Shown here: positions 1 to 34,149 of the stretch, in pieces
Position numbering within the stretch: position 1 is the first letter of the stretch
Layout of the letters: every line of letters starts with the position of its first letter
Origin: a virus
Taxonomy: Duplodnaviria > Heunggongvirae > Uroviricota > Caudoviricetes
Strand: one strand, 5' to 3'
IMG/VR virus record: IMGVR_UViG_3300009537_004349
Length of the DNA stretch: 64,000 nt
The notes under the pieces: generated by a model
What the model was told of the DNA's origin: nothing
Databases searched by the model: none
What the model saw: the letters and a program-made list of their open reading frames with translations, nothing else
Program-made: the position numbers and the translations under genes

Positions 1-551
1 AACTCTTTCCACTTATCATGACCCATCATCGGATGCATGCGAGTAGGCACTAATTCTCTAACAAAGCCAGCCTCTGCGGGCGGCGTGTAACCGAATGAGT
101 TCCAATCTTTCTCTCGTTGGTTCCACTCTTCCTCGGATACCTTCTCATCAGGGTCGGTGTTATTCCAGTAAGAATAGTCCTTTACAAAGCGCCTACGGAA
201 GAATTTCTGCTTGAAGTCAGCCTCACCTGAATACACAATCCCTATCGTGATATCTCTGATAGGATACAGAAATACAGAGAAACTTACATCATAGAGTGAC
301 CTTGTGCCACCTTGCTGCTCTTTGAAAGCTTGTTGTTCAACTTCCCAGATGCAATCCCAAAACTTGATGTCTTCCTTACCATGCATCACTTTTTGATTGT
401 CATACCTACTTACAGCACTCTTAACTATTCTGTCGGTTATTCTTCGCTCAGCCTCACGAAGTATTTGTTTTCTAAACTTATCTAATTTCTTATTTATGTC
501 CAGAAAATCTTGGCTGTCAATCTTAAAGCCATCAAATATCTTAGTGCTCAT
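1..551 (-). CDS. hypothetical protein; start at 551, C-terminal end lies beyond the window start
   Basis: Own translation of the minus strand: ATG at 549-551 (MSTKIFDGFKIDSQ...) stays open to position 1; not in the ORF track because it runs off the edge. Confidence 0.45.
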   Translation of the reverse strand, partial: MSTKIFDGFKIDSQDFLDINKKLDKFRKQILREAERRITDRIVKSAVSRYDNQKVMHGKEDIKFWDCIWEVEQQAFKEQQGGTRSLYDVSFSVFLYPIRDITIGIVYSGEADFKQKFFRRRFVKDYSYWNNTDPDEKVSEEEWNQREKDWNSFGYTPPAEAGFVRELVPTRMHPMMGHDKWKE

Positions 552-688
552 TGCTTTCTTCTTTCAACCTAACGAACTTATTTCGTATCTCTTGGTCAGA
601 CATTCCTTTCCATTCAGGATGTTTGTGACCAGCGTGCATTAAACAATCGAAGCCGCTCATTAACTTCTCGCCGCATTCACATTGCCAC

Positions 689-1039
689 TCAGGCTGCATG
701 GGCGTTGTCCTTCATATAATCGAGCATAACCTTCTGCCCTCTAATGACACCGTATATCCTAAGTCCGCCAGCAGAGGTTTGTTCATAGTCTAACTTAAGT
801 CCGTTCTTGAGTACACACTTATATAGATTGAAGACTGTAATAAACCTTCTGCCTCTCTCCTGCGATTCCTTAATTAGTGGCTCTACCTTTTCTAGTATCT
901 GAGTCCGAGTCTGCTCGTCCATGGCCTTTCTTGCTATGTCAAACTCTAGCTCAAGCCTGCTCCACATACAGCCATCGTTTGTATTGTGGCTTCCACCGCA
1001 GTACTCACATCGGCATTCATCGTAGTGTCCCATTACCAA
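689..1039 (-). CDS. hypothetical protein with Cys-rich N-terminus (CxCxxC...C)
   Basis: 116-aa ORF, co-directional with neighbours. Confidence 0.5.
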   Translation of the reverse strand: MVMGHYDECRCEYCGGSHNTNDGCMWSRLELEFDIARKAMDEQTRTQILEKVEPLIKESQERGRRFITVFNLYKCVLKNGLKLDYEQTSAGGLRIYGVIRGQKVMLDYMKDNAHAA

Positions 1040-1248
1040 TTCACTTTCCCACTGTATGGTGGTGGGTTGAGAGCGTATTCATTTAAGGCGTTATTGATGC
1101 TCTCACTTGCAAATCTATCCGCCCCAGTAGTTTTCTTTCCTGTTATGCACACATAACCTCTATAGTTGATTAAGGTTATGTCCCAGGTTAGGAATATTTT
1201 GTACAAGCTATGTACGGTCGAGTGTTCCATTTCTTTTCTCGTTGGCAC
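1033..1248 (-). CDS. hypothetical protein
   Basis: 71-aa ORF between tRNA and upstream gene; no motif. Confidence 0.3.
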   Translation of the reverse strand: MPTRKEMEHSTVHSLYKIFLTWDITLINYRGYVCITGKKTTGADRFASESINNALNEYALNPPPYSGKVNW

Positions 1249-1320
1249 CCCTGGAGAGATTCGAACTCCCGACCCCGTGGTCCGTAGCCACGTGCTCTCA
1301 TTCCGCTGAGCTACAGGGGT
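1243..1320 (-). tRNA. tRNA-Arg (anticodon ACG)
   Basis: Reverse complement gives ACCCCTG acceptor, TAGCTCAGCGG D-arm, anticodon arm CGTGG-CTACGGA-CCACG, GGTTCGAATCTC T-arm, encoded CCA. Confidence 0.75.
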
Positions 1321-1790
1321 TTATGTGTCGCTATGTCTTTGAGCCAGTCTGGAGGCTCTCGTCTTGTGTAAGTTAGCATCTTCTGCTTAGCACCTATGTA
1401 ATAGTTTCTATATGCCTGCACAGCACTCTCATGCTTAAATTCATCTGGCATAGCTTGAGCGAATGTAGTAAGCTCACCATCTGGTATGGTATCAGCCGAT
1501 GCACACAATATAATAGGAGTTGACTTATGTCTTTTATCATATCGAAATGTGTATTCGGTAAGCAGGGAGACACCTAACTGCTGAAGCCAATAGAAATTTC
1601 CCTTAGTCTTTCTTGTCCAGATACTAGAAGGATGATTTTTATGAGTAGCCTTATATCCATAGCTTCCACCTGTAAGTCTCACTGCCGTAGATAGCAATTG
1701 AGCTGTTTCTAAAATCATCTTTACGACATGTTTATCGCAATGCATTTGGGCGGCTATTTCTGGGTCCTTGTCTAAAACAAATATGTTCAT
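1311..1790 (-). CDS. conserved phage protein (MNIFVLDKDP...CDKHVVKMILETAQLL N-terminal motif), function unknown
   Basis: 159-aa ORF; N-terminal motif recalled as recurring in phage and giant-virus proteins but family not identified; stop is the TAG inside the tRNA D-arm. Confidence 0.55.
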   Translation of the reverse strand: MNIFVLDKDPEIAAQMHCDKHVVKMILETAQLLSTAVRLTGGSYGYKATHKNHPSSIWTRKTKGNFYWLQQLGVSLLTEYTFRYDKRHKSTPIILCASADTIPDGELTTFAQAMPDEFKHESAVQAYRNYYIGAKQKMLTYTRREPPDWLKDIATHKPL

Positions 1791-1993
1791 TCATCATCTT
1801 TTACACTTAATGGAACAAACTCTATTTGACCAGTGCTAAGCATCCTCTTTACATAAGGACAGCACATTCCGCAGCCTAAGCCGAAGTCGATGTGTTCTTG
1901 TAGGTCTTCGATGGTTGAACAGCCGTGTTCCTCGGCTATCTTTTTCAACTCTTCGAAGGGTACATCAAAACAAACACATCTGTTTACACTCAT
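1787..1993 (-). CDS. BFD-like [2Fe-2S]-binding domain protein
   Basis: 68 aa; Cys pattern C-x-C...C-x-x-C (CVCFD...CGMCCPYV) typical of the bacterioferritin-associated ferredoxin fold. Confidence 0.55.
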   Translation of the reverse strand: MSVNRCVCFDVPFEELKKIAEEHGCSTIEDLQEHIDFGLGCGMCCPYVKRMLSTGQIEFVPLSVKDDE

Positions 1994-2385
1994 GGTTCTC
2001 CGAGATAGTCTTTAGCTTTCCTTGTTGCCTCTCGTAGTTGCGTGATTCCAATTTCGTTGTTAACAAACTTGACCACTGCTCCAGCTAAAGCAGAAAGCTC
2101 TTGTCTCAAGTCATAGTTTTGGACTTTAAGCTTGTCTACTTCATCAGCAGAAGCCTTCTTGCTCAAAATTTGATATTCTTTGCCATCGATAGTAATCGAT
2201 ATATCTCTATTAACCAGACTCTTTCTAACTTGCTCCGCTACTGCCGGGGTCTTTAGAACCTTTAGTAGCAGTTCACTTGCTAAATCTTTCATCTTACATC
2301 CCAATCTGAATTTTTGTTGGTGCTTCGACATTGCTTGGGTCATAGCCAGTAGGGCAATACCTTTTAATAATTCTGGCTTCGACAT
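1990..2385 (-). CDS. hypothetical protein
   Basis: 131-aa ORF; 92-bp overlap with the next gene suggests an internal start (Met15 or Met19). Confidence 0.45.
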   Translation of the reverse strand: MSKPELLKGIALLAMTQAMSKHQQKFRLGCKMKDLASELLLKVLKTPAVAEQVRKSLVNRDISITIDGKEYQILSKKASADEVDKLKVQNYDLRQELSALAGAVVKFVNNEIGITQLREATRKAKDYLGEP

Positions 2386-2794
2386 CTTTTATGCTCCTCC
2401 AAAACTCTTTGTTTTTGTGCCAATCGTCTCCGTCACCATTATTCTTAGCCGCAAGGAGCACATGTCCAAGCTCGTGGAATATGGCACTGTGAGCAAAGCA
2501 CTTATGAACTTTAAGGAAGATTACTTTTTCCTCAGCTACCGTAAGCCCATCTGCTACTACTATATTTCCTTCTTCGTTATATCTAGCAAACCACGCTGAG
2601 CTGAACACAAAGTCCCAACCCAACACCGTATGATGGTCAGTGTTTCTAAGTGCCTCTTGCACCAAAAGCCTTAACTCATTCTCAGTCGCTGTATGTTCCG
2701 CCTGTCTGTCGTAAACATCAACACCGTTAACTTGAAAGGTTGCACAGCCCGTCAAGAGCTGTGCAACCAATATTACATGGAGGACTCTCTTCAT
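2294..2794 (-). CDS. putative lipoprotein zinc metallopeptidase (HExxH)
   Basis: Signal peptide plus lipobox (LLTGCAT); HELGH motif. Confidence 0.55.
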   Translation of the reverse strand: MKRVLHVILVAQLLTGCATFQVNGVDVYDRQAEHTATENELRLLVQEALRNTDHHTVLGWDFVFSSAWFARYNEEGNIVVADGLTVAEEKVIFLKVHKCFAHSAIFHELGHVLLAAKNNGDGDDWHKNKEFWRSIKDVEARIIKRYCPTGYDPSNVEAPTKIQIGM

Positions 2795-2814
2795 TTACGT
2801 ATCTTTCTTTCGTT

Positions 2815-2891
2815 TGGTGCTCCCTGGGGGAATTGAACCCGCCATCTTAGGGGTGAAAATCCTAGATCCTGAGCCATTAGACGAAGGGAGC
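2815..2891 (-). tRNA. tRNA-Glu (anticodon UUC), tentative
   Basis: Reverse complement GCTCCCT acceptor, anticodon loop TTTTCAC, T-loop TTCAATT, encoded CCA; one mismatch in T-stem. Confidence 0.6.
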
Positions 2892-2893
2892 GT

Positions 2894-3340
2894 TTATCGC
2901 ATGGCACCTAATTTTGACGATGCTGTCGCACTGTAAGCTGAGTTGTTCAATAGGAACTCATTCATCCAGTACCAGTTGTCTTTCATATAGCAATTGTACT
3001 GGTCTTGGTCTAGCACAATCGTGTCATCTGATGTAAGCTCTAACATTTCAAGAACAGTGTCGTATTCCTTCAACTGATTCTTGGGTACCTTTAAAGACTG
3101 TAGGGGATGCTTCTTCAAACTAGGTGAAGGCAACTTGGTCTTATCCAGTTCACCTAGTTTATCTGCTAGAATGCCCTCTGTCTCTCGGACAGCCTCAACA
3201 AATGCCTTGCGGTATCCTTCAACTGCCTCGTTATAAATCGTTTCGTGTTCTTCCCTGTTCTTCTTTAGAGTTTCAACCACAGTTGCCTTGCTGAAACTCA
3301 TGCTGATGCTGGACGATGCCATCATATCTCTCCTTGCCAT
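2894..3340 (-). CDS. hypothetical protein
   Basis: 148-aa ORF. Confidence 0.5.
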   Translation of the reverse strand: MARRDMMASSSISMSFSKATVVETLKKNREEHETIYNEAVEGYRKAFVEAVRETEGILADKLGELDKTKLPSPSLKKHPLQSLKVPKNQLKEYDTVLEMLELTSDDTIVLDQDQYNCYMKDNWYWMNEFLLNNSAYSATASSKLGAMR

Positions 3341-3828
3341 TACTTACCTCTTAGAGATATACCGTGCTTTTTTAACAAAGCAAGCTCTTTTTTATTTAGC
3401 TTCTTGAGAAGGTCGGAGTGCTCCTGGCGCTCTCTTTCTCGTTTTCTTACTTCTGCTTGTTTACGCTGCTCTTTCCTTAGTCGTGCAGCATCCATCTTTT
3501 TATGTGCTTCCCACCAGGTTAGCAACTCATCAGATGGTTCTTCTAAGTCGTATGTACGCATCACCTCGCACAGAAGTCGAGTAGCTTTATCTAAATCTAT
3601 TTTAAGTTTTCTTTGCTTCTCTTCTTCTAGCTTCCTTTTCTCTTCAGCATTTCTACGCCAACGTGCCTCTTCTTCAGGCGTTGGGTCTACTCTACAAGGC
3701 ATGCTACTTTCCTTTCGCCAGATTCTTAGTTTTGAGATGTTCAGGTATCTTGAGTTTGAAATCAAACCACATTTGCCAATGCTTTTCGCATAGCATTGCT
3801 GGAACATCAAACTCAGCTTCTTGTTCAC
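3340..3828 (-). CDS. hypothetical highly charged coiled-coil protein
   Basis: 162-aa ORF rich in E/K/R heptad-like repeats. Confidence 0.5.
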   Translation of the reverse strand: MNKKLSLMFQQCYAKSIGKCGLISNSRYLNISKLRIWRKESSMPCRVDPTPEEEARWRRNAEEKRKLEEEKQRKLKIDLDKATRLLCEVMRTYDLEEPSDELLTWWEAHKKMDAARLRKEQRKQAEVRKRERERQEHSDLLKKLNKKELALLKKHGISLRGK

Positions 3829-3917
3829 AACCTTTGATTATACATCTCATGTCGCTACCCCTGTCGTTGCAAATGTGTCAAGCGACAGTCAAAGCGTATT
3901 CCCACCAACCCTGCGAC

Positions 3918-4193
3918 TCACGCTTTGGTATAAGTGTCTAAAGCCAATAGTGCCCATCGAGTATCAAGCTCACGGCACCAGTCGTTTATGTCACAAAAAT
4001 AAGAAGCATCTCCCTCTTGTTCCACATCTTTAGATGGGATTACAAGCTGAGGAAACACCGGGTCTATTGATACAATTACCGTGTTTCCTGACTCCCTAAT
4101 GTCAAAAGCCGTCTCTACATCCAATTCTCTGAGATGCTCAAACTGACTCTTCGACATATACAGAGAGTACGCTACTTTACTTGCTAAGTTCAT
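3918..4193 (-). CDS. hypothetical protein
   Basis: 91-aa ORF. Confidence 0.45.
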   Translation of the reverse strand: MNLASKVAYSLYMSKSQFEHLRELDVETAFDIRESGNTVIVSIDPVFPQLVIPSKDVEQEGDASYFCDINDWCRELDTRWALLALDTYTKA

Positions 4194-4407
4194 CTGTATG
4201 CCTTTCGCTACTACCGTATGAGATATTGCTCCACACTCTCTCGTGTATATAATACACTATGGTGGAAACTATATTTGCCCATATCATTACTTCTATTGAG
4301 GTCTTTAAGTTCCCTAAAACCATGTATGTTGTTATGGAACCTGCAACTAAAGCAACCATTCTCCATGATACTGCTTTAGCTATAGACCTTTTCTTTGTTT
4401 CTTTCAT
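4177..4407 (-). CDS. hypothetical membrane protein
   Basis: 76 aa with two hydrophobic segments. Confidence 0.45.
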   Translation of the reverse strand: MKETKKRSIAKAVSWRMVALVAGSITTYMVLGNLKTSIEVMIWANIVSTIVYYIHERVWSNISYGSSERHTDELSK

Positions 4408-4414
4408 TTCGATT

Positions 4415-4492
4415 TGGTGGGGCCGGAAGGACTCGAACCCTCGACCACAAACAGGTTAAAAGCCTGGTGCTCTGCCGCTGAGCTACGACCCC
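4415..4492 (-). tRNA. tRNA-Lys (anticodon UUU)
   Basis: Reverse complement GGGGTCG acceptor, TAGCTCAGCGG D-arm, anticodon loop CTTTTAA, GGTTCGAGTCC T-arm, CCA; long (8-nt) variable region. Confidence 0.65.
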
Positions 4493-4512
4493 ATTGAGTC
4501 GCAGCATAAAGC

Positions 4513-4722
4513 TTAGCAACAGCCGTTCTCACATCTTCCTAGAGCGGAATTAACGGCGCCATCTACAATTTCCCCTACGTCTAGTAGTTCGCGTAGTTCA
4601 TATTGCAAACGTTTACGCCCTTCTTTCAATCCCAGCTCATACCAGTAAGTACGACTATTATCATACTCTTGCTGCGTCATTGATATGCGTTTAGTACGTT
4701 TGCTTTTTTTCTTAGTAGCCAT
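4513..4722 (-). CDS. hypothetical basic protein
   Basis: 69-aa ORF. Confidence 0.4.
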   Translation of the reverse strand: MATKKKSKRTKRISMTQQEYDNSRTYWYELGLKEGRKRLQYELRELLDVGEIVDGAVNSALGRCENGCC

Positions 4723-4723
4723 T

Positions 4724-5245
4724 TTACCACTCCAAATTACGAAACTCGTCCAGCACTTCTTGTGCCTTCTCCTTAGATAAATCTATATGTTGCATGCCTG
4801 GTTGCCCGCGCTGTTGCACTTTGTATGGTCTTCCTGCCACCATAACTGACAATGTGTAGTCACTCATCGGTGTAAAACAGTGCCACGCAGATGGGTTTGT
4901 CATCTCATATTTACACCCTGGATTTAATATCAGAGTGCTAACGAGATAAATCTCCAAGCATAATTCTAACTTATACGTTCCTTTGGCCACATACATAGCC
5001 GCCTCACATGGATGGCTGTGTGCCTCTGGTTCTCCTACATTATATCCTCTGTGCAGGAAAATGTCAAACAATTCTTCCCCAACCTGAATAGTCTTCTTTA
5101 ATCTTTCTAGCCTGGGTGCCGATTCGATTATAGTTGCGCTCCAGTCATCTAAGTCAGACTGGAGGATGTTGGGCATATCCTTAAGAACTTTGTCCAGGAT
5201 ATCCAACATTACTGGTTCCTTGTAATCTTTACTACTGGTTCGCAT
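4724..5245 (-). CDS. hypothetical protein (possible cupin-like metal site HxH...H)
   Basis: 173-aa ORF; HRGYNVGEPEAHSHP segment. Confidence 0.45.
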   Translation of the reverse strand: MRTSSKDYKEPVMLDILDKVLKDMPNILQSDLDDWSATIIESAPRLERLKKTIQVGEELFDIFLHRGYNVGEPEAHSHPCEAAMYVAKGTYKLELCLEIYLVSTLILNPGCKYEMTNPSAWHCFTPMSDYTLSVMVAGRPYKVQQRGQPGMQHIDLSKEKAQEVLDEFRNLEW

Positions 5246-5499
5246 GGAACTTGTACAACGCCATGAGTATTCTTAGTTACAAAGAAACATAAGTCCGTTC
5301 TACTATCCCATACATAATGCCCCTGGTCGCCTGCTGGGATTTTGATAACCCCGTCGTTGGGCAGCTCTTCTGAACCCTCAATAACAGTAGCTGGTTCTGG
5401 TGTCTTAGCTTCTGCCACTGCAATAATTGTCCCAATTGCACCCATAGATACTAATGCTCCAAGGATACAAAACATTATCACTTCTTTTTCACGTTTCAT
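5209..5499 (-). CDS. hypothetical secreted or membrane-anchored protein
   Basis: 96 aa with N-terminal hydrophobic signal-like segment. Confidence 0.45.
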   Translation of the reverse strand: MKREKEVIMFCILGALVSMGAIGTIIAVAEAKTPEPATVIEGSEELPNDGVIKIPAGDQGHYVWDSRTDLCFFVTKNTHGVVQVPCEPVVKITRNQ

Positions 5500-5967
5500 C
5501 TAAAATCCCTTTCGAAGCTTATATCGCCACATCAAAAATTTACAAGTATCCCTAAACATTATTCTAAATGATGGACGATTACCTGCTCCATATGCAGTAT
5601 CCAGTCGCCAGTTTATATATGTAAATGACGCTATGGGTAAAAAAGGAAATCTTTTCCACCATCCTATCTTACAAATAACAAAATAGAATAGCACTGCCTC
5701 TCTAGCTATTATCAATCCTTCTCGAAACCTGCCCATAAACCTTTTCTGGGATGAGCCTTTTTGCATCTTTCAATATAATCCCTTCGACTGGGCAACCTGT
5801 CTCTAACACAATGAGTAATGCTTGCATATCCACAGGCTATAGTTGAACTCATCTTTTCTGGCTCTGCTCCTGCCAACATAGCATCAAGCAATATCCAGTT
5901 TTCCATCCAGCAGAGAGTGTCCACAATAGCAAAAATAAAATCTAATTCGTCATCAGGACTCTTAAAA

Positions 5968-6261
5968 TTATCGCTCACGGGACTTTCTATACTCTGCGCA
6001 TTTCTGCATGAACTCGCACCATTCAGGAGGCGTGTGGTCAAGTTTGATACCATCTTCCAAAACCTGCCAAAGCTCTTCATCATTCTCCCAACACATCTCA
6101 TGACCAGTTTGCTCTCTGTGCTTTTTGATGGCATTCTCTAATTCTTTAATCCTGCCAATCATCCAAGCCGTCTCTTCGCAGTGATGAGCATCGAGTCGCT
6201 TGTATCTTTCTTCCCATGACAAACTGGGGTCATCTACATATTTCTTGATAGGAATTTTCAT
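5968..6261 (-). CDS. hypothetical protein
   Basis: 97-aa ORF with protein-like composition; overlapping ORF 5712..6134 judged less likely. Confidence 0.4.
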   Translation of the reverse strand: MKIPIKKYVDDPSLSWEERYKRLDAHHCEETAWMIGRIKELENAIKKHREQTGHEMCWENDEELWQVLEDGIKLDHTPPEWCEFMQKCAEYRKSRER

Positions 6262-6848
6262 TAGTATCTCTTTTCAGAAATCATCCTGCCAGAATCAAAC
6301 TTGCGTTCCCATCTAGGAGAGCCATCTTCATACCAACCCATATCTCTTCCATGTTGTCTGCCCTCTACCCATTCATGTTCGCTCTTCTTTACACCATTCT
6401 CATAATAGTGCCGAAAGATAATATGGTCAGAGCCGTCTAGGAATTCCATCGTGGCAAGTCTTTCGAACTTATCATCACGATAGTATACTTCATTTTCGTT
6501 CTTGTATTCGGCTATACCAGAAAGGATTTTGATGAATGCTTCAGTGATAAGCTCATCATTAATCGCTTGAACGTAACCCTTCTTAACTTTAGAGGCAATA
6601 AGTTTCTTAGCCTCTCGTTCACATTGGTCTTCGCTGTAATACTTCTTGGTATTAGACTGCCCAATGGTTCCTATTCTTCCCCAGTGAGTAGTAAACTCTT
6701 TTCCATTCGTTTCAAGGTTCCAGAACTTGTTAGACCTAGCATCCTGGAAAACTAGTGATGCACTTGCCATCGTATTGCCTTTCGTTTGAAGCTGCCACCA
6801 CTGCTCTCGGATAGCTATAGGGACTTTAACTCCTGCCAGACTCGTCAT
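6261..6848 (-). CDS. WGR-domain protein with C-terminal MORN repeats
   Basis: WGRIGTIGQ...KKLIASKVKKGY (WGR); C-terminal YYENG...W.EG..HG...W.EDG repeats (MORN). Confidence 0.55.
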   Translation of the reverse strand: MTSLAGVKVPIAIREQWWQLQTKGNTMASASLVFQDARSNKFWNLETNGKEFTTHWGRIGTIGQSNTKKYYSEDQCEREAKKLIASKVKKGYVQAINDELITEAFIKILSGIAEYKNENEVYYRDDKFERLATMEFLDGSDHIIFRHYYENGVKKSEHEWVEGRQHGRDMGWYEDGSPRWERKFDSGRMISEKRY

Positions 6849-6911
6849 TAGGCACTGGCTTCCTGCTGCTTACTAATGAGTAGCGCTACCTCTCATTTTC
6901 AGACAGCTGAT

Positions 6912-6990
6912 TATTCGATTGGTCTGGGTAGAGGGATTCGAACCCCCGACCCCCTGCTCCCAAAGCAGGTGCTCTAGCCAGACTGAGCTA
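6912..6990 (-). tRNA. tRNA-Pro (anticodon UGG)
   Basis: Reverse complement TCTGGGT acceptor, TAGCTCAGTCTGG D-arm, loop TTTGGGA, T-arm GGTTCGAATCC, CCA. Confidence 0.7.
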
Positions 6991-6998
6991 CACCCAGA

Positions 6999-7586
6999 TT
7001 ATTTATTTACACTATCGTAACATCTACGCCAAATCATAGTATACATTCTGCCTTCGACCGTATAGTCGGTGGGCAAGTCTTGTAACAAAGCCCAATCTGT
7101 AAACATGTACTCTATGTTGTGCGCTTCTTGCTGAGAATGAAATCCGCTTATTTCCAAGTAACGGTCGACTATAAAGTGTATTATCTCATGCTGAGCTATA
7201 TTGTATCTATCCATACATTGCATGAGAGGAGTTATGTTGGCCCCCTGTCTTAGATTAACAGTAGCTCCATCACAACAATATCCGCCGCCGTAAGTAGTTG
7301 ACCAGTTAGCCCACTTGTACTCTAAACTGAAATCATGTTCTTCAGCTAAGGCAGACATGTCTAGACCAGGATAATAAAAGTTTACCTCATACTCTAGAGT
7401 ATGAACGACCCAAGATAAAGTCACAGGGTCTATTTCCATAAATCTGCTCTCTTCTATAACACATATACCTTCTATATCATAGTCACAGAAAGATATTTCT
7501 TTTGGCTTTGGTACCGGTTCTTCTGCTGGCTCTTGTCCACACGCCGCAAGCATCAGTGCCAGTAGCACATATTTTGCTTTATACAC
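6999..7586 (-). CDS. putative lipoprotein zinc metallopeptidase (HExxH)
   Basis: Lipobox LMLAACGQ; HEIIH motif. Confidence 0.55.
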   Translation of the reverse strand: MYKAKYVLLALMLAACGQEPAEEPVPKPKEISFCDYDIEGICVIEESRFMEIDPVTLSWVVHTLEYEVNFYYPGLDMSALAEEHDFSLEYKWANWSTTYGGGYCCDGATVNLRQGANITPLMQCMDRYNIAQHEIIHFIVDRYLEISGFHSQQEAHNIEYMFTDWALLQDLPTDYTVEGRMYTMIWRRCYDSVNK

Positions 7587-7602
7587 TGTTGTATCCTAAA
7601 AG

Positions 7603-7854
7603 TCAAGCCCAAAAATCATGCACCCACTCACCCGAAGGATTATAATCAATGCCTTCTTGCAAACTATCAATAAAATCCTGCAATTTTATGTAGTTATTAT
7701 CTATCGTATGTAGTGGAGATTTTAGGCTGGGCGAACCACCAGTTATCGCTAAATCATTTTTATTGATTGATATATGTTCCGCAACACACCTACCATCAGC
7801 AAGCGCTTCATAGTAGTACGACTCCAACCATCTAGGCGACCGATGTACCTTCAT
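7603..7854 (-). CDS. hypothetical protein
   Basis: 83-aa ORF. Confidence 0.45.
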   Translation of the reverse strand: MKVHRSPRWLESYYYEALADGRCVAEHISINKNDLAITGGSPSLKSPLHTIDNNYIKLQDFIDSLQEGIDYNPSGEWVHDFWA

Positions 7855-8045
7855 TTGTTTTTAAGCCTTTCAAAGTACTCGTCCACTTTCATTGTGGAAC
7901 GCTCTGAGCCATAAAAAGCAGTGTGGGTAATCTTCCAACCAGTTCTGCTTAATCCCGCTCTCAGGGCTTTTATTTCAGCTTTTCGCTTTAAGACTTCGGC
8001 ATAGATGCCTGCGACGACACCATTAACTCCCCTGTGCTTTTCCAT
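7851..8045 (-). CDS. hypothetical protein
   Basis: 64-aa ORF, 4-nt overlap with downstream gene. Confidence 0.4.
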   Translation of the reverse strand: MEKHRGVNGVVAGIYAEVLKRKAEIKALRAGLSRTGWKITHTAFYGSERSTMKVDEYFERLKNK

Positions 8046-8215
8046 CTGAAATACTCCGTAAGCGTTAGTTCTATAAACTCATCAGCATCTTTGTGTTGCT
8101 TCAACCTCACTCTTATAGAGGTAAGGTCTCGCTTGTCAACCAGTGCATCCAAGTAAGTGTACAGTGCATGCTTTCCTTCAAACCGCCACATATTGTATAG
8201 TGCATGTTTATTCAT
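7988..8215 (-). CDS. hypothetical protein
   Basis: 75-aa ORF. Confidence 0.4.
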   Translation of the reverse strand: MNKHALYNMWRFEGKHALYTYLDALVDKRDLTSIRVRLKQHKDADEFIELTLTEYFRWKSTGELMVSSQASMPKS

Positions 8216-8544
8216 AGCGGTGAATCTATACTATCATGTAGGTGTGCATCGTCAGCATCAGGGACTTCTATATCCATAATTCTTGCCAACTCTTTATATG
8301 CATTCTCTACCATTCTCAGCTTTCTCTGGTCTAATATGAGCTTTAGCTTACTAAAGTCGTCAGAGAAATACTCTGGGCCAATTCTCACCTGTCTCATTTC
8401 ATAACTATCGTTATAACCTGTAGCTAACGAACGCCATGTGGACGGGTCAGCATCTTCATCTATCCACTCATAATACACTGATAGACTATACTCTTCAGGC
8501 GAAATGAAATAAAGCTTCTTCTTTCCTTTAGGTTTCTTACTCAT
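8212..8544 (-). CDS. hypothetical protein (start moved to Met36 downstream of the tRNA)
   Basis: Track ORF 8212..8649 starts inside tRNA-Leu; first ATG after the tRNA 3' end is at 8542-8544. Confidence 0.45.
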   Translation of the reverse strand: MSKKPKGKKKLYFISPEEYSLSVYYEWIDEDADPSTWRSLATGYNDSYEMRQVRIGPEYFSDDFSKLKLILDQRKLRMVENAYKELARIMDIEVPDADDAHLHDSIDSPL

Positions 8545-8911
8545 CGTCTTTCTCTTTGGTGCCTCTGACAGGATTCGAACCTGTAAGCCCTTTAGTGGGC
8601 ACTGGACTCTCATTCCAGCGTGTATGCCAGTTCCACCACAGAGGCTCATACGTCATAGTCCTGGCGTTATTTTCTGTCACTATGAAATCTATTAAACCCT
8701 GTAAGCTTATCTCTTCTCTTGTTTCAGCAGGGCGAGAATAAATACTAGGGTGGTCTACTTCAAAATAGACCCTTATGTGCTCTGCCCTGGTTTTCTTTTT
8801 CAACAGCGCTACATAAGTATTGTGCACTAAGTGTGGAGCAATCTTATGATAGTCTGTGTCTCTACCATAGTACTCTTTGATTATTTTATGCTTTCTGTAA
8901 TCAAATTCCAT
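8537..8911 (-). CDS. hypothetical protein; reading frame runs through tRNA-Leu
   Basis: 124-aa ORF with protein-like N-terminal 90 aa; C-terminal 36 codons are the tRNA sequence (no earlier stop). Confidence 0.4.
   Translation of the reverse strand: MEFDYRKHKIIKEYYGRDTDYHKIAPHLVHNTYVALLKKKTRAEHIRVYFEVDHPSIYSRPAETREEISLQGLIDFIVTENNARTMTYEPLWWNWHTRWNESPVPTKGLTGSNPVRGTKEKDDE
8557..8645 (-). tRNA. tRNA-Leu (anticodon GAG), type II with long variable arm
   Basis: 89 nt; GCCTCTG acceptor, anticodon arm CTGGA-ATGAGAG-TCCAG, variable arm, GGTTCGAATCC, CCA. Confidence 0.65.
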
Positions 8912-8914
8912 CTT

Positions 8915-8989
8915 GGTGCCCTTACGGGGATTCGAACCCGCGATTGCCTGATTGAGAGTCAGGTAGCCTGGCCATTAGCTGATAAGGGC
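8915..8989 (-). tRNA. tRNA-Glu (anticodon CUC)
   Basis: GCCCTTA acceptor, D-stem AGCT/GGCT, anticodon arm CCTGA-CTCTCAA-TCAGG, GGTTCGAATCC, CCA. Confidence 0.65.
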
Positions 8990-9194
8990 ATCGGCACTCT
9001 ATCCACTCTTCAAAGGTAATGTATCGTTCATCTACTGATGACAACTCGGGAGAAAACTTTTTTATGGTTGCAAAGTCACAATATTGCAAAGCGAAAGCTT
9101 CAGTGTCGTCATTTCCTGGGAATATCATTATATCTTCAATGTTATAGCCATTGAAGACAATCTTATATATATCCGTCTGAAGTCTTGGTATCAT
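8922..9194 (-). CDS. hypothetical protein; C-terminus reads into tRNA-Glu
   Basis: 90-aa ORF; last about 23 codons overlap the tRNA. Confidence 0.4.
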   Translation of the reverse strand: MIPRLQTDIYKIVFNGYNIEDIMIFPGNDDTEAFALQYCDFATIKKFSPELSSVDERYITFEEWIECRCPYQLMARLPDSQSGNRGFESP

Positions 9195-9387
9195 CCCGCT
9201 TACCTATTATAACTGAACAGAAGTAGTTCACGTACTCCATTTCTTCATCTGACATCTTATACCAATGCTCATCCATAGCATCTAGTATTTCATCTTCACG
9301 CTCAGGTTCTTCCTTGCGAACTCTCAATAACTCCATGGTTAAATCCATGTAGGCATTAAAATGTTTGCCAAACTTTGTCTTAGCCAT
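9163..9387 (-). CDS. hypothetical acidic protein
   Basis: 74-aa ORF. Confidence 0.45.
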   Translation of the reverse strand: MAKTKFGKHFNAYMDLTMELLRVRKEEPEREDEILDAMDEHWYKMSDEEMEYVNYFCSVIIGKRDDTKTSDGYI

Positions 9388-9667
9388 GTGCCTGCTTGAG
9401 TGCTAACTCATTCCTAATCATGTAGTCTAAGTCGTGATGCCTGTAAGTTTCTCCATTACAATAGCATTCCTCGGCTATCTCATCATCGATATCTAAATGC
9501 TCAATAAAAGCACTGGCCGGGCCTATGTGTGCTACAAGCCTATCAAACGAAATTTCTCTCTTGCAATGGTAGCTATATAGTTGACGTATCCAATGCTCGG
9601 GTCGTTTATTAATCATATCCCAGTTACGCCTTTCAATATTGCTTTCTGCACAGATATAGACCTGCAA
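9380..9667 (-). CDS. hypothetical protein
   Basis: 95-aa ORF. Confidence 0.45.
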   Translation of the reverse strand: MQVYICAESNIERRNWDMINKRPEHWIRQLYSYHCKREISFDRLVAHIGPASAFIEHLDIDDEIAEECYCNGETYRHHDLDYMIRNELALKQAHG

Positions 9668-9810
9668 TCTTTCAACTGAGGCTTGTTATCTTTCCTAAAC
9701 ACTGCCCCATATCTATACCTGCCTGAGTGATCAACGCACACTAATAAATCTTTTGGATACAAACCGCAGTACAAAGCATAGTGATACTTATCCTCTATTG
9801 TGCGATTCAT
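9613..9810 (-). CDS. hypothetical protein
   Basis: 65-aa ORF. Confidence 0.35.
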   Translation of the reverse strand: MNRTIEDKYHYALYCGLYPKDLLVCVDHSGRYRYGAVFRKDNKPQLKDCRSISVQKAILKGVTGI

Positions 9811-9813
9811 CTA

Positions 9814-10011
9814 TTATCCCAGGTCTTCTATTGATTTTACCTCAGCGTCGTCCCATTCGGTTACAACTAGATAACCGGAGTCTTCAAGAAAACTAATCAT
9901 AGCATCGTACACTTCTTTGTTGCTATCTACCAATTCTCCTCTGACATATATATTACCATTCGGATCAAATCTCAATACCTCGTCGGTATCTACGTTAAAA
10001 GATATAGACAT
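9814..10011 (-). CDS. hypothetical acidic protein (start at Met16 after the tRNA)
   Basis: Track ORF begins inside tRNA-Lys; ATG at 10009-10011. Confidence 0.45.
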   Translation of the reverse strand: MSISFNVDTDEVLRFDPNGNIYVRGELVDSNKEVYDAMISFLEDSGYLVVTEWDDAEVKSIEDLG

Positions 10012-10028
10012 TAAATCCTCTGTTCGAT

Positions 10029-10105
10029 TGGTGGGTCCAGTGGGACTCGAACCCACAACTCCCTGGTTAAGAGCCAGGTACTCTAGCCAATTGAGTTACG
10101 GACCC
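10029..10105 (-). tRNA. tRNA-Lys (anticodon CUU)
   Basis: GGGTCCG acceptor, anticodon arm CCTGG-CTCTTAA-CCAGG, T-arm GTGGG-TTCGAGT-CCCAC, CCA. Confidence 0.75.
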
Positions 10106-10341
10106 CGATTTGTTTGTGCTGTTTCTACCTCAATGATAGTTTGCTGTACTATTTTATTAGTTCGTTCTTCATGCAGTGCTCGAATCAAAGTGTGGTACGT
10201 TTCATCGTACCTGCCATTACTATCTTTGAACGACACACTTTTCGCGCCAATATCTCCAAGAGCCCTGGCAATCGCTGCGGCTATAGTGGACTTGCCTGAA
10301 CCGGAGCCGCCAGTGACTGTAATTTTTACCTTGTGTATCAC
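10096..10341 (-). CDS. small P-loop NTPase-like protein
   Basis: 81 aa with Walker A GGSGSGKST. Confidence 0.45.
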   Translation of the reverse strand: MIHKVKITVTGGSGSGKSTIAAAIARALGDIGAKSVSFKDSNGRYDETYHTLIRALHEERTNKIVQQTIIEVETAQTNRGP

Positions 10342-11090
10342 CAGCCGTTTCCTTTCACAGTGTAAACCTGCACCTGTTTTCTTATCTTGTTCTGTGGCTC
10401 CTGAGGAATTACTCCCAATCTAAAGAAGAATCGCCACCCAGGATTTACACAGGCCACTGCTCGATGCGGAGTGTTCTGGTCGAACTTTACAACATCTCCC
10501 TCTTGTAATTCCTTGTTGTAGAATGCAGCCTGAGAATTGAGTTGTCTATCAAGGCTGCTCCACACGTTCTCTCTATCTATAGTGAGTTCTATCTCCTCGT
10601 CAAGAAATTCTGTCTGAGAAACATTCTCAACCGTGCTAAGAATGCAGGTATAGAACTTTACATTGGGGTTAATCTTAGCTAAGTCGGGTTGTGCATACTG
10701 CTCGCACCGTGGAACCCCATCACAATGCCAACCTGGAATAGCTGGGTACATACCCTTCATTAGCATATGAGAACGAGTATCAATAATACAGTTGTACTCT
10801 ACCTCGCCCTCGCCCTCGCCCTCGACGTCCAGCTCATTGCCGTGTAGGTCTTCGACTTGTGTTCCTTTACTTTTTGCCAGACGAATCATTCTCGCTATGC
10901 CTGCCGAGCAAATGTCTGGCTCATTCTTTAGGAAGTCCAACACATAATTAGTGAGTGGGCCACCATGTTCTCTTGCGAAGTTCCAGTCAGCACTAAATAA
11001 CATAGGCTCACTATGAATTTCCTCAACCGACACCTTGGTCTCGGGAAGTCTTGCCACCACCTCTATTAGTGGATTGAAAGTATGTTTCAT
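10338..11090 (-). CDS. hypothetical protein, possible Fe(II)/2OG-oxygenase-like HxD...H site; contains an (EG)3 repeat
   Basis: Track ORF starts with TTG at 11153; first ATG at 11088-11090; WHCDG...PHRA motif; GCCCTC x3 direct repeat at 10800-10818. Confidence 0.4.
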   Translation of the reverse strand: MKHTFNPLIEVVARLPETKVSVEEIHSEPMLFSADWNFAREHGGPLTNYVLDFLKNEPDICSAGIARMIRLAKSKGTQVEDLHGNELDVEGEGEGEVEYNCIIDTRSHMLMKGMYPAIPGWHCDGVPRCEQYAQPDLAKINPNVKFYTCILSTVENVSQTEFLDEEIELTIDRENVWSSLDRQLNSQAAFYNKELQEGDVVKFDQNTPHRAVACVNPGWRFFFRLGVIPQEPQNKIRKQVQVYTVKGNGW

Positions 11091-11353
11091 TTCTTTTCTT
11101 TCGCGACGGAAGCAAAATCTCCCTCCGCCATCAGATACTCCGCCAGTGTGCAATAACGCTTGTAAGGACCTCGTGGCGGATAAACTTTATCCTCACCAGC
11201 ATACCTATACCCCTGGTCTATGTTCAGGTGAATATTATCATCGCCGCCGGTTATGAACGAATGACCCACAAATCTTTTTTCTACAAGTGTTTCTTTATAA
11301 AGATACCTAATTAGTGCCTCACAACTATCTCTGAGTTCTTTCTTGCTTCTCAT
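11087..11353 (-). CDS. hypothetical protein
   Basis: 88-aa ORF. Confidence 0.45.
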   Translation of the reverse strand: MRSKKELRDSCEALIRYLYKETLVEKRFVGHSFITGGDDNIHLNIDQGYRYAGEDKVYPPRGPYKRYCTLAEYLMAEGDFASVAKEKK

Positions 11354-11357
11354 CGTC

Positions 11358-11435
11358 TGGCCCTCCCAGTAGGACTCGAACCTACGACCTACCGCTTAGG
11401 AGGCGGTCGCTCTTATTCCACTGAGCTATGGGAGG
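11358..11435 (-). tRNA. tRNA-Arg (anticodon CCU)
   Basis: CCTCCCA acceptor, TAGCTCAGTGG D-arm, anticodon arm ACCGC-CTCCTAA-GCGGT, GGTTCGAGTCC, CCA. Confidence 0.7.
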
Positions 11436-11558
11436 TCTAAGTGCACTATCACAAATGGACGAGAACCCTTGAGTTTATGCTGGCCACATAACTGCCAGTA
11501 AAGCCCTTCTGTTCTCACCATATATACGTTGTATTCTCCAAGTGCGTATTTATATATC

Positions 11559-11768
11559 TCATATAACCAGTGTTCCATTCTTTACCTGCTCCAAAAATTC
11601 TTCTCCAGGTATGTACCCTGCAGCACGGATGTCCTCATCTTTCTTTATCATGTTGCCGCAAAATCCTGTTTGAGGATTGAAATAGAAAGAAGTTCCTTTC
11701 TTTAGATTAGCAGGATGCAGCATTAGTCCATATATGCTATACACCCAATTCTGCATGCCATTGCTCAA
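11559..11768 (-). CDS. hypothetical protein
   Basis: 69-aa ORF. Confidence 0.4.
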   Translation of the reverse strand: MSNGMQNWVYSIYGLMLHPANLKKGTSFYFNPQTGFCGNMIKKDEDIRAAGYIPGEEFLEQVKNGTLVI

Positions 11769-12051
11769 TGTAAGCCTCCGTCTGCTTCACCAGCTTCTTA
11801 TAGTCTGGTCCCTTCCTAACGAAAAAGATAGCCTTGTATTCTCTATCAGCCATCCCTAACTCTCTATGCTTAATACTGGGGATAATGTTCTCTAGCTGTC
11901 CTGAAAAAGCTTCGATTTCGTGATAGTCTTCAAAGCCGATTACTACTGGTAAGTTGGCCTCGATAAAGCTGTCAGGAATCTCAAGAGTCACTGTCTTGGT
12001 CACTTTTCTTCGCGACACTTTCTTTGCTACTTTCTTTTTTGCCATTTCCAA
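11737..12051 (-). CDS. hypothetical protein
   Basis: 104-aa ORF. Confidence 0.45.
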   Translation of the reverse strand: MEMAKKKVAKKVSRRKVTKTVTLEIPDSFIEANLPVVIGFEDYHEIEAFSGQLENIIPSIKHRELGMADREYKAIFFVRKGPDYKKLVKQTEAYIEQWHAELGV

Positions 12052-16114: not shown

Positions 16115-16650
16115 TACCGACTCTTATACTTATCTACTAAGTTCTTAGCCAGCCTAAATGAACTCTCATTTTTCTTATGAGCAGCCATATCATCACGAAC
16201 TTTTGTAACAACCTCACCCAGCCAATTCTTACCATCCCAAGTCTTACGACTTTGAGTTTTAGGGTCGCCTTCTGCCAAACCAATTCCCCAAATCTTATCA
16301 TAAGGACTGGCTTCAACCAAAGTGGTGCCTGCTGTTTTTACCAGAGCATCTTTATGATTACTATTCTGACTGAACTTACAATAGTTCCCCACATACACAA
16401 GTTCACGTGCCACCTTAGCCCAAGCAGGAATGTCAAAACCTTTAACCTGCCTGCCAAGTTTCTTTTGCACACCAGGATGGTCTTCCGACATAATCTTTTT
16501 GGCAGTGGAATAGTCCTCGAACAATACAGCCTTCATGAACATCATAAACTGCTCTGCTCTGTTAAACTTCATTCCCTCGAACTCAAACGGGCTGCTACTC
16601 CACTGAGAGAAGGGTCCGTTCCAAAAGAATGTAAACTGCTCAGCCATCAT
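16114..16650 (-). CDS. NADAR (YbiA-like, DUF1768) family protein
   Basis: FFWNGPFSQWS...EGMKFNRAEQFMMFMKA...KLGRQV...LVEASPYDKIWGIGL matches the YbiA/NADAR domain. Confidence 0.6.
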   Translation of the reverse strand: MMAEQFTFFWNGPFSQWSSSPFEFEGMKFNRAEQFMMFMKAVLFEDYSTAKKIMSEDHPGVQKKLGRQVKGFDIPAWAKVARELVYVGNYCKFSQNSNHKDALVKTAGTTLVEASPYDKIWGIGLAEGDPKTQSRKTWDGKNWLGEVVTKVRDDMAAHKKNESSFRLAKNLVDKYKSR

Positions 16651-17677
16651 GATTCTCCATCACAGCCCAACCAGCCTGTGGTCGGATGGTAAAGTCATCA
16701 TCTTGTGCTGCACCAACAAGCCCAGCAACGAACTTCATTTTGATATCTGTACCTAGATATTCCCATACAAACGGGACAGATGAAATACCTAGAGGAAAAT
16801 CATCTGGATTATTACCAGAGAATCCGCCACCAGTATTCCACTTCTCAACGAATGGATTCTTTCTATCGCGTACCAGGTAGGGAAACAAGGTATTCACCCA
16901 TCCAGTCACATACGGTCCACCAGAACCACCACCAATCTTGTACAGCGAACGCCAGAAGTCTTTGTCTACATTTCCCTCTGCCGACTCTTTTACTTTTTCA
17001 AGCACAGGTAGTAGATGGTCAGTCCACCACTCAAGCCCGAACTCGCTCATGTAAGAGGCTTTGTCGATTAGCTTCTGCCAATCTTCAGGCTCTCCCTCAA
17101 GAGTAATGCTTGGGAAACCACAAAGAGTTCGGCAGATATAGTCAAAGTAGTTCTGCATAGCATCCATAAGTACAACTTCAGATGCTGCCTTCTCTAACAC
17201 ACCAGTTGTGCTAAAGTTACATACGATTAGGTCTCGCTTCTTACCGATATAGTCTGATATCTTATCGCTAAACTCATCGAAGCAACCCTCCCAATCATTA
17301 TCAGGGGAGCCTTTGACGAAATGGTCTCTGCGAACAATAATCTTTTTCTTACCCTCAAAGTCTACAAATTTCTTACGTAGCTTCTCAGCGTTAAGATTGA
17401 TATGTGTTGCAAGTCCACCAGAAATCGTGAGCCAGAACGCATCAGGGGATAGGCTCAAAGGACGATGTTGGTCAAACGCCATATGAATAGCTGACAATAG
17501 ACCGTGCTTTGTATCATTGATTAGCGGTGTATTAGACCAGGCTTCAATAGGTGGCTTCTCTAGCTCACCATATAACTTTCGCTTGCCCAGCTTGTTATCT
17601 AAAATAACTTTCGTATCTACTGTGTGCAATGGCTCCGTGGCCATCTGAACATCGTCTACTTGAAACTGAATGGACAT
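16640..17677 (-). CDS. hypothetical protein (345 aa)
   Basis: Long ORF; glycine-rich segments GGGSGGP, GGGFSG; no assignable family. Confidence 0.55.
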   Translation of the reverse strand: MSIQFQVDDVQMATEPLHTVDTKVILDNKLGKRKLYGELEKPPIEAWSNTPLINDTKHGLLSAIHMAFDQHRPLSLSPDAFWLTISGGLATHINLNAEKLRKKFVDFEGKKKIIVRRDHFVKGSPDNDWEGCFDEFSDKISDYIGKKRDLIVCNFSTTGVLEKAASEVVLMDAMQNYFDYICRTLCGFPSITLEGEPEDWQKLIDKASYMSEFGLEWWTDHLLPVLEKVKESAEGNVDKDFWRSLYKIGGGSGGPYVTGWVNTLFPYLVRDRKNPFVEKWNTGGGFSGNNPDDFPLGISSVPFVWEYLGTDIKMKFVAGLVGAAQDDDFTIRPQAGWAVMENHDG

Positions 17678-24832: not shown

Positions 24833-25240
24833 ATCTCGGAGTAAGCCTGTAAGCTGGATTCTGTCTAGTGCAATCATTCATCTAGGCTTACCATTACTGA
24901 TAAGCTCAAGCCTCTTACCCGCCAGCACATCGAGCCAATGTATAGCTGGTCTATTTTGAGTTGCAACACCTAGAGTTTAGCCGTTTCACCCTTGTTACTT
25001 ACCTGGGGCAGTACCTTCCACAACTAGTGAGAGCGGCCATCCCCTTATAGGCTCTCAGGGTTTTATTGGTTGTAACAAGACTCGTCTCTGTTCCACTAGT
25101 CCTCACCTCACGGTGGATGGGCGTTACCCACTAGGTTGCTCTGTGTTGTCCAGACTTTCCTCTGCATAGCCACAAGCTAAAGTTTTCAGTGGCGGCGGAC
25201 GCAAGCTCCTTGTATGCAGCGATTGCACGGATTACTCCGT
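24833..25240 (-). ncRNA. rnpB: RNase P RNA, bacterial type-A-like (rnpB)
   Basis: Minus strand carries conserved RNase P blocks in order: AGGAAAGTCTGGAC, GGGTAACGCC, ACAGAGA...AACC, GATGGCC, CAGGTAAG...GGGTGAAA, GGCTAAACTC, CAAAATAG, GGGTAAGAGGCTTGAGC, CCTAGATGAATGA, ACAGAATCCAGCTTA. P1 pairing CGGAGTAA (25232-25239) with TTACTCCG (24837-24844). No ORF at or above the 60-aa track cutoff across this 365-bp gap. Confidence 0.75.
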
Positions 25241-34016: not shown

Positions 34017-34149
34017 AGTTTTCTCTTTTTCGTTTGGATAAAGAGTTACCCCTGTTCGTTCCCATCTAGACTTACCAGACACCACAGGCCATAGCTTAAG
34101 TGTGAGAACGTATCTACCTGAAGGCTTGAAGTTCTTTTTGTTAGTAATT

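Follow-up and report, generated by a model that had tools for sequence, protein, structure and literature searches.

The 64,000-nucleotide stretch of viral DNA considered here (Duplodnaviria; Heunggongvirae; Uroviricota; Caudoviricetes; IMG/VR virus record IMGVR_UViG_3300009537_004349), hereafter the window, encodes two small proteins with the BFD domain of bacterioferritin-associated ferredoxin (Bfd), the [2Fe-2S] protein that mobilizes iron from bacterioferritin (Bfr). An initial annotation had located both open reading frames (ORFs) correctly, in position, strand and sequence, and had read them as two Bfd-like proteins that could release host iron stores. As a whole, that interpretation is partly supported. 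The two genes and the folded part of the second are as follows.

1787-1993, minus strand: ORF1, 68 amino acids, MSVNRCVCF...GLGCGMCCPYV
34150-34443, minus strand: ORF2, 97 amino acids, MYVCLCIPTTDKQIRQAV...GTGCSCCCKHIRQII
34288-34443, minus strand: BFD domain of ORF2, residues 1-52 (residues 53-97 form a tail)

Both proteins score above the gathering threshold of the Pfam family Fer2_BFD (PF04324; 26 bits). ORF1 reaches 32.3 bits (E 1.3e-7, profile positions 3-49 of 50) and ORF2 reaches 45.5 bits (E 9.8e-12, the full length of the profile, positions 1-50 of 50). The spacing of the cysteines, named beforehand as a feature that could overturn the assignment, is compatible with the BFD profile in both. 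In ORF2, the four cysteines (C4, C6, C38 and C41; CxC-x31-CxxC) are at positions identical to those of Pseudomonas aeruginosa Bfd. In ORF1 they are C6, C8, C41 and C44 (CxC-x32-CxxC) and are placed in register by phmmer, MAFFT and hhalign. The idea that ORF1 has the same four-cysteine arrangement thus holds for the register of the ligands, but one residue is inserted between the two pairs. Judged by sequence, ORF1 is a BFD-domain protein that stands alone, and its predicted [2Fe-2S] site is C6/C8/C41/C44. The BFD-like domains of the nitrite reductases NirB and NasB and of NifU belong to the same Pfam family, but they are internal to enzymes of 300-850 amino acids, whereas ORF1 and ORF2 stand alone and score far below the cut-offs for those enzymes. 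The best NCBIfam matches of ORF1, for example, are segments of NirB at 26.1 and 23.7 bits, far below the family cut-offs, and it scores 16.6 bits against the NCBIfam Bfd equivalog NF007803 (PRK10509), for which the cut-off is 75.

The membership of ORF2 in the Bfd clade is supported by its sequence and by a structural model. The description of ORF2 as a close match to Bfd was borne out: in a phmmer search its match to P. aeruginosa Bfd (4E6K_G) has E 2.5e-9, and about 40% of residues are identical over the 52-59 amino acids aligned. The contacts of P. aeruginosa Bfd with Bfr involve M1, Y2 and L5, its cluster ligands include C4 and C6 (PMC11303784, PMC12261321), and R26, R29 and K46 form a phosphate site that stabilizes the fold (PMC11303784). 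The N terminus of ORF2, M1-Y2-V3-C4-L5-C6 (MYVCLC), keeps all three docking residues; in 41 Bfd-family sequences, conservation of Y2 and of L5 is 90% or higher. All of the invariant columns of the Bfd alignment (M1, V3, C4, C6, G21, C38 and C41) are also kept. At the positions of the phosphate triad ORF2 has K26, G29 and R46, of which two are basic. An AlphaFold (AF2) model of ORF2 has a predicted local distance difference test score (pLDDT) of about 70-87 over the domain and below 50 over the acidic 45-residue tail. When this model was searched with Foldseek, the top four matches were all P. aeruginosa Bfd (TM score 0.72-0.76, root mean square deviation 2.2 A), and the first match after the Bfd chains was at E of about 1. 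ORF2 resembles the Bfds of P. aeruginosa (PA3530; 4E6K, 6E6Q-S) and Acinetobacter baumannii in the length of its folded domain, the MYVCLC start, the predicted three-helix fold, the ligands C4/C6/C38/C41 and the docking residues M1/Y2/L5.

ORF1 has only the domain and the ligands in common with these Bfds. It is 23% identical to ORF2 and aligns weakly with the P. aeruginosa Bfd structures (E 0.02-0.15). The N terminus, which is the docking part of Bfd, differs in that five residues instead of three come before the first cysteine: the protein starts MSVNRCVC, a two-residue N-terminal extension, with N4 in place of Y2 and V7 in place of L5. At the positions of the phosphate triad ORF1 has I28, L31 and K49, of which one is basic. 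An AF2 model of ORF1 made from four sequences had a pLDDT of 45.6, too poor for the fold to be judged.

Profiles made for each clade, built without the sequences being scored, separate the two proteins. Against the Bfd-clade profile ORF1 scores 26.0 bits, ORF2 55.6 and Escherichia coli Bfd 65.3; against the ORF1-clade profile the scores are 109.9, 19.0 and 28.6, respectively. Searched exhaustively with HMMER, the ORF1-family profile matched 566 cluster representatives (50% identity) at E <=1e-3, of which 121 also reach E <=1e-10. Nearly all members of the ORF1 clade are stand-alone proteins of 57-130 amino acids that align end to end with ORF1, and they share a conserved stretch C-terminal to the Pfam domain (PYV..ML.TG.T.F). 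In an alignment of 46 sequences, C6, C8, C41, C44 and Y47 are invariant and F13, L31 and F59 nearly so, which gives the motif RC[VI]C...F...L...C..C.PYV..ML.TG.T.F; ORF1 carries every clade-defining residue. Comparison of this clade with the 41-sequence Bfd alignment by hhalign (96% probability, E 3.8e-9, cysteines aligned) indicates that the two families are true, distant homologs. JGI labels some members of the ORF1 clade "bacterioferritin-associated ferredoxin", and these automatic labels are probably wrong. Of the initial reading as two Bfd-like proteins, what stands is that both have a BFD domain with a complete four-cysteine site and that ORF2 is a credible Bfd-type protein. ORF1 as a second Bfd does not fit: it belongs to another clade, it lacks Y2 and a free N-terminal methionine, and its bacterial relatives lie in operons with cobalamin riboswitches and genes for BtuB and BtuG.

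We located these bacterial relatives with a degenerate DNA motif for C..C.PYV..ML.TG in the species genomes of GTDB, which gave at least 120 loci, and examined about 8 kb of DNA at each. All 120 loci listed encode an ORF1 homolog (35-61% identity). They come from Rhodothermales, Salinibacter, Rubricoccaceae, Balneolaceae, other Bacteroidota, Ignavibacteria and Zixibacteria, and also from Phycisphaerae, other Planctomycetota and Sericytochromatia. No Bfr gene was found in these approximately 8-kb regions at any of the 120 loci; canonical bfd genes were beside bfr where such pairs were met. At 52 of the 120, a gene for a TonB-dependent receptor and one for a YVTN/YncE-type beta-propeller are directly upstream of the BFD-like gene on the same strand, separated from it by a few bases or overlapping it by 4 nucleotides. 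The best matches of the receptor in the Protein Data Bank are Bacteroides BtuB chains (8bmx_C, 8p97_A, 8p98_A, 8blw_A), and those of the propeller are the BtuG-type partner chains of BtuB entries (8bmx_D, 8p97_B, 8blw_B). Just upstream of the receptor gene there is a cobalamin riboswitch (Rfam RF00174) in all 18 of the Rhodothermales and Bacteroidota loci tested, with scores of 46-110 bits against a gathering score of 31.5. These 18 riboswitch-BtuB-BtuG-BFD operons, from Rhodothermales, Salinibacter, Rubricoccaceae and Bacteroidota (L014, L016, L031, L036, L045, L059, L062, L066, L072, L084, L086, L091, L095, L103, L114, L125, L128, L135) include one in a cultured organism, Longimonas halophila KCTC 42399 (L062). 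A TonB-dependent receptor could indicate uptake of iron or siderophores, and we dropped that reading because of the riboswitch at all 18 loci and the structural matches to BtuB and BtuG.

In Phycisphaerae and other Planctomycetota, the riboswitch is 2-3.4 kb upstream on the same strand at 10 of the 11 loci with enough upstream DNA (L022, L023, L026, L028, L041, L055, L065, L067, L071, L127). Here the intervening genes are different and encode proteins of unknown function, including dockerin-like and prepilin-type DUF1559 proteins, and the BFD-like gene is last; this operon may be an undescribed B12-related system. Altogether, the riboswitch is present at 28 of the 56 bacterial loci scanned and at 28 of the 29 in the two main lineages. 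At one locus, in Zixibacteria, a radical SAM gene lies upstream, and a gene for the B12-dependent MetH is divergent. Genes repressed by cobalamin riboswitches normally function in B12 synthesis or import, or encode B12-independent substitutes. Therefore, the simplest reading, by association, is that the ORF1-clade ferredoxin serves the acquisition of corrinoids, for example by reducing imported cob(III)alamin.

Based on these comparisons, we favor the view that the window encodes two genuine small BFD-domain proteins from different clades, most likely with different jobs, and we put the probability of this explanation at about 0.5. Because ORF2 keeps the Bfr-docking surface, we propose that it binds host Bfr. 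Its N-terminal surface (M1-Y2-x-C4-L5-C6) would dock over the heme of the Bfr subunit dimer, and ORF2 would take electrons from a host ferredoxin reductase and pass them through the heme to the ferric core, with release of Fe2+. ORF2 is thus a plausible phage Bfd that taps host bacterioferritin, and we give this mechanism slightly less than even odds. ORF1, whose clade lacks the docking residues, is judged from comparison with its relatives not to be a Bfd. It most likely donates single electrons to some partner that is not Bfr, and reduction or processing of corrinoids is the leading candidate role. In the phage, the riboswitch would have been lost and translation of ORF1 coupled to unrelated small genes. 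We hold a role linked to cobalamin uptake in the phage itself only tentatively and consider it doubtful.

Several observations weigh against this explanation. ORF2 matches six of nine near-invariant columns of the Bfd alignment; the other three, G8, R29 and G39 in the family, are P8, G29 and S39 in ORF2, which also contains the additional cysteines Cys40 and Cys42. Together with its location in a phage, the lack of an adjoining bfr and the acidic tail, which overlaps another ORF, these residues distinguish it from the Bfds of P. aeruginosa and A. baumannii. There is no close relative of ORF2 in a collection of 5.8 billion proteins, the best match being an Acinetobacter Bfd at about 48% identity. 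ORF2 scores 32.8 bits against NF007803, well under 75, but this cut-off is uninformative since it also rejects two validated Bfds, that of P. aeruginosa at 49.4 bits and that of A. baumannii at 54.3. Among all ORFs of at least 60 amino acids in the window, there is no bfr or ferritin gene and no obvious iron-consuming enzyme. The iron clients suggested at first, ribonucleotide reductase and Fe(II)/2-oxoglutarate oxygenases, are absent from the window, and no recognizable partner gene for B12, radical SAM or other redox or iron metabolism was found in the same set of ORFs. The suggestion of an iron Trojan horse drew no support from the analysis. For ORF1, the connection to B12 is guilt by association, made in bacteria, and the window contains no cobalamin riboswitch (RF00174). 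The scanned locus DNA of several of the closest relatives, from Zixibacteria and Ignavibacteria (54-61% identity), has no riboswitch either, and in Balneolaceae the link to B12 is absent and the neighbor is a gene for dCTP deaminase.

The genes next to ORF1 and ORF2 bear on the alternatives.

1990-2385, minus strand: 131-amino-acid protein without a Pfam match, syntenic in all close relatives; its stop codon overlaps the ORF1 start (ATGA)
1311-1790, minus strand: 159-amino-acid Pyr_excise-like/phrog_624 protein; its ATG overlaps the ORF1 stop codon (ATGA)
34446-34889, minus strand: NUDIX hydrolase (Pfam NUDIX, E 5.5e-15); its TAG stop is 2 nucleotides before the ORF2 ATG
34008-34283, minus strand: 91-amino-acid ORF that overlaps the final 134 nucleotides of ORF2 in a different frame

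ORF1 has relatives with 72-85% identity on short Logan contigs, and the block encoding proteins of 148, 166 and 131 amino acids, ORF1 and the 159-amino-acid protein is syntenic in six related contigs. Pairwise dN/dS for ORF1 and its relatives is 0.07-0.11 (with dS above 1), and ORF1 is under purifying selection. These ratios and the conserved block indicate that ORF1 is a real gene. The ATGA overlaps at both of its ends point to translational coupling with the 131-amino-acid gene and with the Pyr_excise-like/phrog_624 gene, which scores 25.2 bits against Pfam PF03013 and matches phrog_624 at E 5.8e-59. The pairing of ORF1 with this last gene is kept in two close relatives (L001, L002) and split by another gene in a third (L003). 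At 15 loci of the Balneolaceae type (among them L018, L048, L052, L056, L061, L063, L089, L097, L099, L101, L109, L110, L119 and L124), the ORF1-clade gene directly follows the dCTP deaminase (DCD) gene, with an RsmE-like gene next at 13 of the 15, and in L048 a photolyase-related DPRP gene is upstream of the deaminase. A link to pyrimidines or ultraviolet damage, common to the Balneolaceae loci and to the phage with its pyrimidine-dimer-glycosylase-like neighbor, may be coincidence.

One or both of the proteins could instead be general-purpose small ferredoxins that supply electrons to phage or host enzymes of nucleotide or DNA metabolism and have no tie to Bfr or B12. A generic role as electron carrier is the main rival to a cobalamin role for ORF1, and the coupling of ORF1 to the Pyr_excise-like gene and the Balneolaceae-type loci, with their deaminase and at least one photolyase-related gene, are in keeping with it. 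The position of ORF2 directly after the NUDIX gene, a similar Bfd-type ORF near a NadM-Nudix gene in phage XacN1 and its relatives, and the lack of a conserved neighbor of ORF1 in distant phage loci also agree with such a role. However, no requirement for a ferredoxin is known in any of the neighboring families, the pairing with the Pyr_excise-like gene is interrupted in the close relative L003, and the retention of Bfr-docking residues in ORF2 is left unexplained. We regard this account as unlikely, though it deserves serious consideration.

Alternatively, both ORFs could be functionally equivalent Bfds acting on host bacterioferritin, as two doses or with two Bfr specificities. That both pass Fer2_BFD, that the families are homologous and that JGI calls members of the ORF1 clade Bfd would fit with this. 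Equivalence is difficult to reconcile with the missing Y2 and the longer N terminus of ORF1, with the clean separation of the two proteins by clade profiles, and with the lack of Bfr at the 120 ORF1-clade loci when canonical bfd adjoins bfr, and we think it improbable. Still less probable is that ORF2 is a decoy that occupies the Bfd site of host Bfr without productive electron transfer and blocks mobilization of iron, as a form of shut-off or competition. ORF2 keeps the docking residues, has lost R29 of the phosphate site and has additional cysteines flanking its ligands, and blocking the Bfr-Bfd interaction in P. aeruginosa starves the cytosol of iron (PMC12261321). But the four ligands are intact, the fold is predicted to be that of Bfd, and an iron-starved cell would starve phage replication too.

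The 52-residue domain of ORF2 is secure, and the tail and true 3' extent of the gene are uncertain. The overlapping 91-amino-acid ORF has an AAGGAA (Shine-Dalgarno) motif 8 nucleotides upstream of its ATG and has no match in Pfam, in PHROGs or in tblastn searches of phages. In the region of overlap its codon-usage score is 0.29 per codon, versus 0.06 for the ORF2 tail; real genes score 0.22 +/- 0.10. ORF2 is held to be a real gene because of its complete domain, its start 2 nucleotides past the NUDIX stop codon and the structural model. That ORF2 is a decaying or mis-assembled gene, to which out-of-frame sequence may have been joined by a frameshift at about codon 53, would account for the better-scoring ORF in the other frame and for the presence of ORF1 but not ORF2 from the same contig in the large protein collection. 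This is the least probable of the alternatives, as the domain lacks nothing, having its start codon, its ligands and a well-modelled third helix, and Bfd normally ends in a disordered tail, its crystal constructs being truncated at residue 56.

Genes of both types occur in other phages or on virus-like contigs. An ORF1-type gene is present on a phage-like 135.8-kb JGI contig (L015; tblastn, 62% identity over 60 amino acids) that also carries at least 13 tRNA genes and genes for HNH, SNase and RF-1-like proteins. At 6001-6926 of this locus, the ORF1-type gene is followed 39 nucleotides on by the release-factor-like (PCRF/RF-1) gene. A protein-seeded scan of IMG/VR with ORF1 gave no relatives and a strict DNA motif none, but a relaxed motif found eight true ORF1 homologs on eight IMG/VR contigs (29-47% identity). 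No neighbor of the ORF1-type genes is conserved across the distant phage loci, and a search for RF00174 in eight other virus-derived loci (L015, L138-L140 and L142-L145, with L141 left out) gave no match. Searches of deposited phages by tblastn found no ORF1-type gene, and PHROGs has no family for ORF1 or ORF2. Similarly, protein-seeded scans of IMG/VR and of JGI metagenomes with ORF2 gave no relatives.

We found unannotated ORF2-type genes in the cultured Xanthomonadaceae jumbo phages XacN1, Xoo-sp13, RAS14 and CM1, where they lie between a gene for a large acidic protein and a NadM-Nudix gene.

3001-3243 of L007: Bfd-like ORF of RAS14
3001-3216 of L008: Bfd-like ORF of XacN1
3001-3216 of L011: Bfd-like ORF of Xoo-sp13

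Like ORF2, these phage-encoded proteins stand alone and belong to the Bfd clade, whose profile gives them 42-93 bits; they are encoded in accessory regions near NUDIX or NadM genes. They have 71-80 amino acids, start M[YF]VC[LI]C and are 32-41% identical to ORF2. Unlike the phage described here, the XacN1-type phages have no ORF1-type gene, and their hosts are gammaproteobacteria known to have Bfr and Bfd. Two further records were rejected. The Bfd of "Acinetobacter phage MD-2021a" (L009, CAKLQH020000003.1) is on a bacterial chromosome in the order spoT-bfd-bfr, and that of the unverified "Pseudomonas phage Y5" (L010, OQ572407.1) is on a bacterial chromosome in the order ahpC-bfd-bfrB; such records would produce false counts of phage Bfds. 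Among the genomes examined, this phage alone carries both an ORF1- and an ORF2-type gene, and full-text literature searches returned no paper on a phage Bfd or on a BFD-like protein in B12 operons or in the context of BtuG. ORF1 resembles the bacterial stand-alone "(2Fe-2S)-binding proteins" of the riboswitch operons in its clade residues, its ML.TG.T.F extension and its 35-61% identity to them, and differs in having no riboswitch and no btuB or btuG neighbor. In concept, both ORFs recall the plant-type ferredoxin (petF) of cyanophages, a small host-derived [2Fe-2S] carrier borne by a phage as an auxiliary metabolic gene, although petF is of another fold and family and has other partners (photosynthetic electron transport and PebS).

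That the window comes from a phage is well supported, though indirectly. It contains no capsid or tail gene. All of its genes are on one strand, and 27 tRNA genes are dispersed singly among about 137 small ORFs between 1243 and 62406, all on the minus strand. Matches to PHROGs, the T4-type RNA ligase, the genes for NAD salvage and other features listed below also point to a phage, and the best protein matches are to the uncultured huge phages LR756508 and LR756511 and to crAss-like Bacteroides phages. There was no nucleotide-level match to deposited phages in a megablast search with positions 1-12000. ORF1 is identical to a protein on a 291,701-bp JGI contig. The window is best explained as belonging to an accessory region, rich in tRNA genes, in a phage of about 292 kb. 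The tRNAs (an example is at 45231-45308) include one with a CUA anticodon, an amber suppressor that ARAGORN calls tRNA-Pyl. This tRNA raised the prospect of global recoding of TAG, which we rejected for the window because TAG ends 11 of the 48 long ORFs, which are intact under code 11; these TAG stops include those of the NUDIX gene and ORF2. Other genes and features of the window are listed below.

24834-25238, minus strand: RNase P RNA of bacterial class A, full length (RF00010, model positions 1-367; 209.5 bits, gathering score 100, E 4e-66)
46836-47942, minus strand: T4 Rnl1-type RNA ligase (phrog_562)
34867-35439, minus strand: HAD_SAK_2 phosphatase, of the "Swiss Army Knife" RNA repair type
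36315-36935, minus strand: HD_4 protein
56399-58333, minus strand: NadE, salvage of nicotinamide adenine dinucleotide (NAD)
58337-59497, minus strand: NAPRTase, NAD salvage
16640-17677, minus strand: DUF4419 protein (E 6e-75)
40764-41948, minus strand: SPFH/Band-7 protein
2294-2794, minus strand: 166-amino-acid protein, immediately upstream of the ORF1 block, with a lipoprotein-like N terminus and the motif HELGH

The presence of rnpB beside 27 tRNA genes suggests that the phage brings its own ribozyme for processing the 5' ends of tRNAs. The RNA ligase, the HAD_SAK_2 phosphatase and the HD_4 protein are counted as genes of RNA repair and stress. A PP-loop ATPase and a cold-shock protein are encoded elsewhere in the window, as are NADAR, WGR and isochorismatase (PncA-like) proteins, which together with NadE, NAPRTase and NUDIX make up a tool-kit for NAD salvage and ADP-ribose. 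The SPFH protein is assigned to phrog_11908, and its best phage relatives, in crAss-like Bacteroides phages, are a weak hint of a Bacteroidota-type host.

At the level of families, what we describe is ordinary: a known domain, in small host-derived accessory genes of a huge phage. What is new is that a viral protein conserves the surface for docking to Bfr, and that there is a previously unremarked, B12-regulated clade of ferredoxins. A more far-reaching proposal, which we consider quite unlikely, is that ORF1 is the phage member of an undescribed group of B12-regulated [2Fe-2S] ferredoxins that act at the end of BtuB-BtuG corrinoid import, and that with ORF2 it reprograms both stored iron and cobalamin. 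Cob(III)alamin would then be reduced for adenosylation or dealkylation, and the two proteins might serve iron- or B12-dependent enzymes of replication, for instance a class II ribonucleotide reductase encoded in another part of the 292-kb genome. If the prediction for ORF2 holds, the virus encodes a key to the bacterioferritin store of its host, which would be a new kind of auxiliary metabolic gene. Its action could be tested with the existing Bfr-Bfd assays and inhibitors of P. aeruginosa, where Bfd binds Bfr with a Kd of about 5 uM, and the cultured jumbo phages allow genetics. For the ORF1 clade, co-transcription with BtuB-BtuG-type genes in at least two phyla points to an unrecognized redox step in the acquisition of corrinoids.

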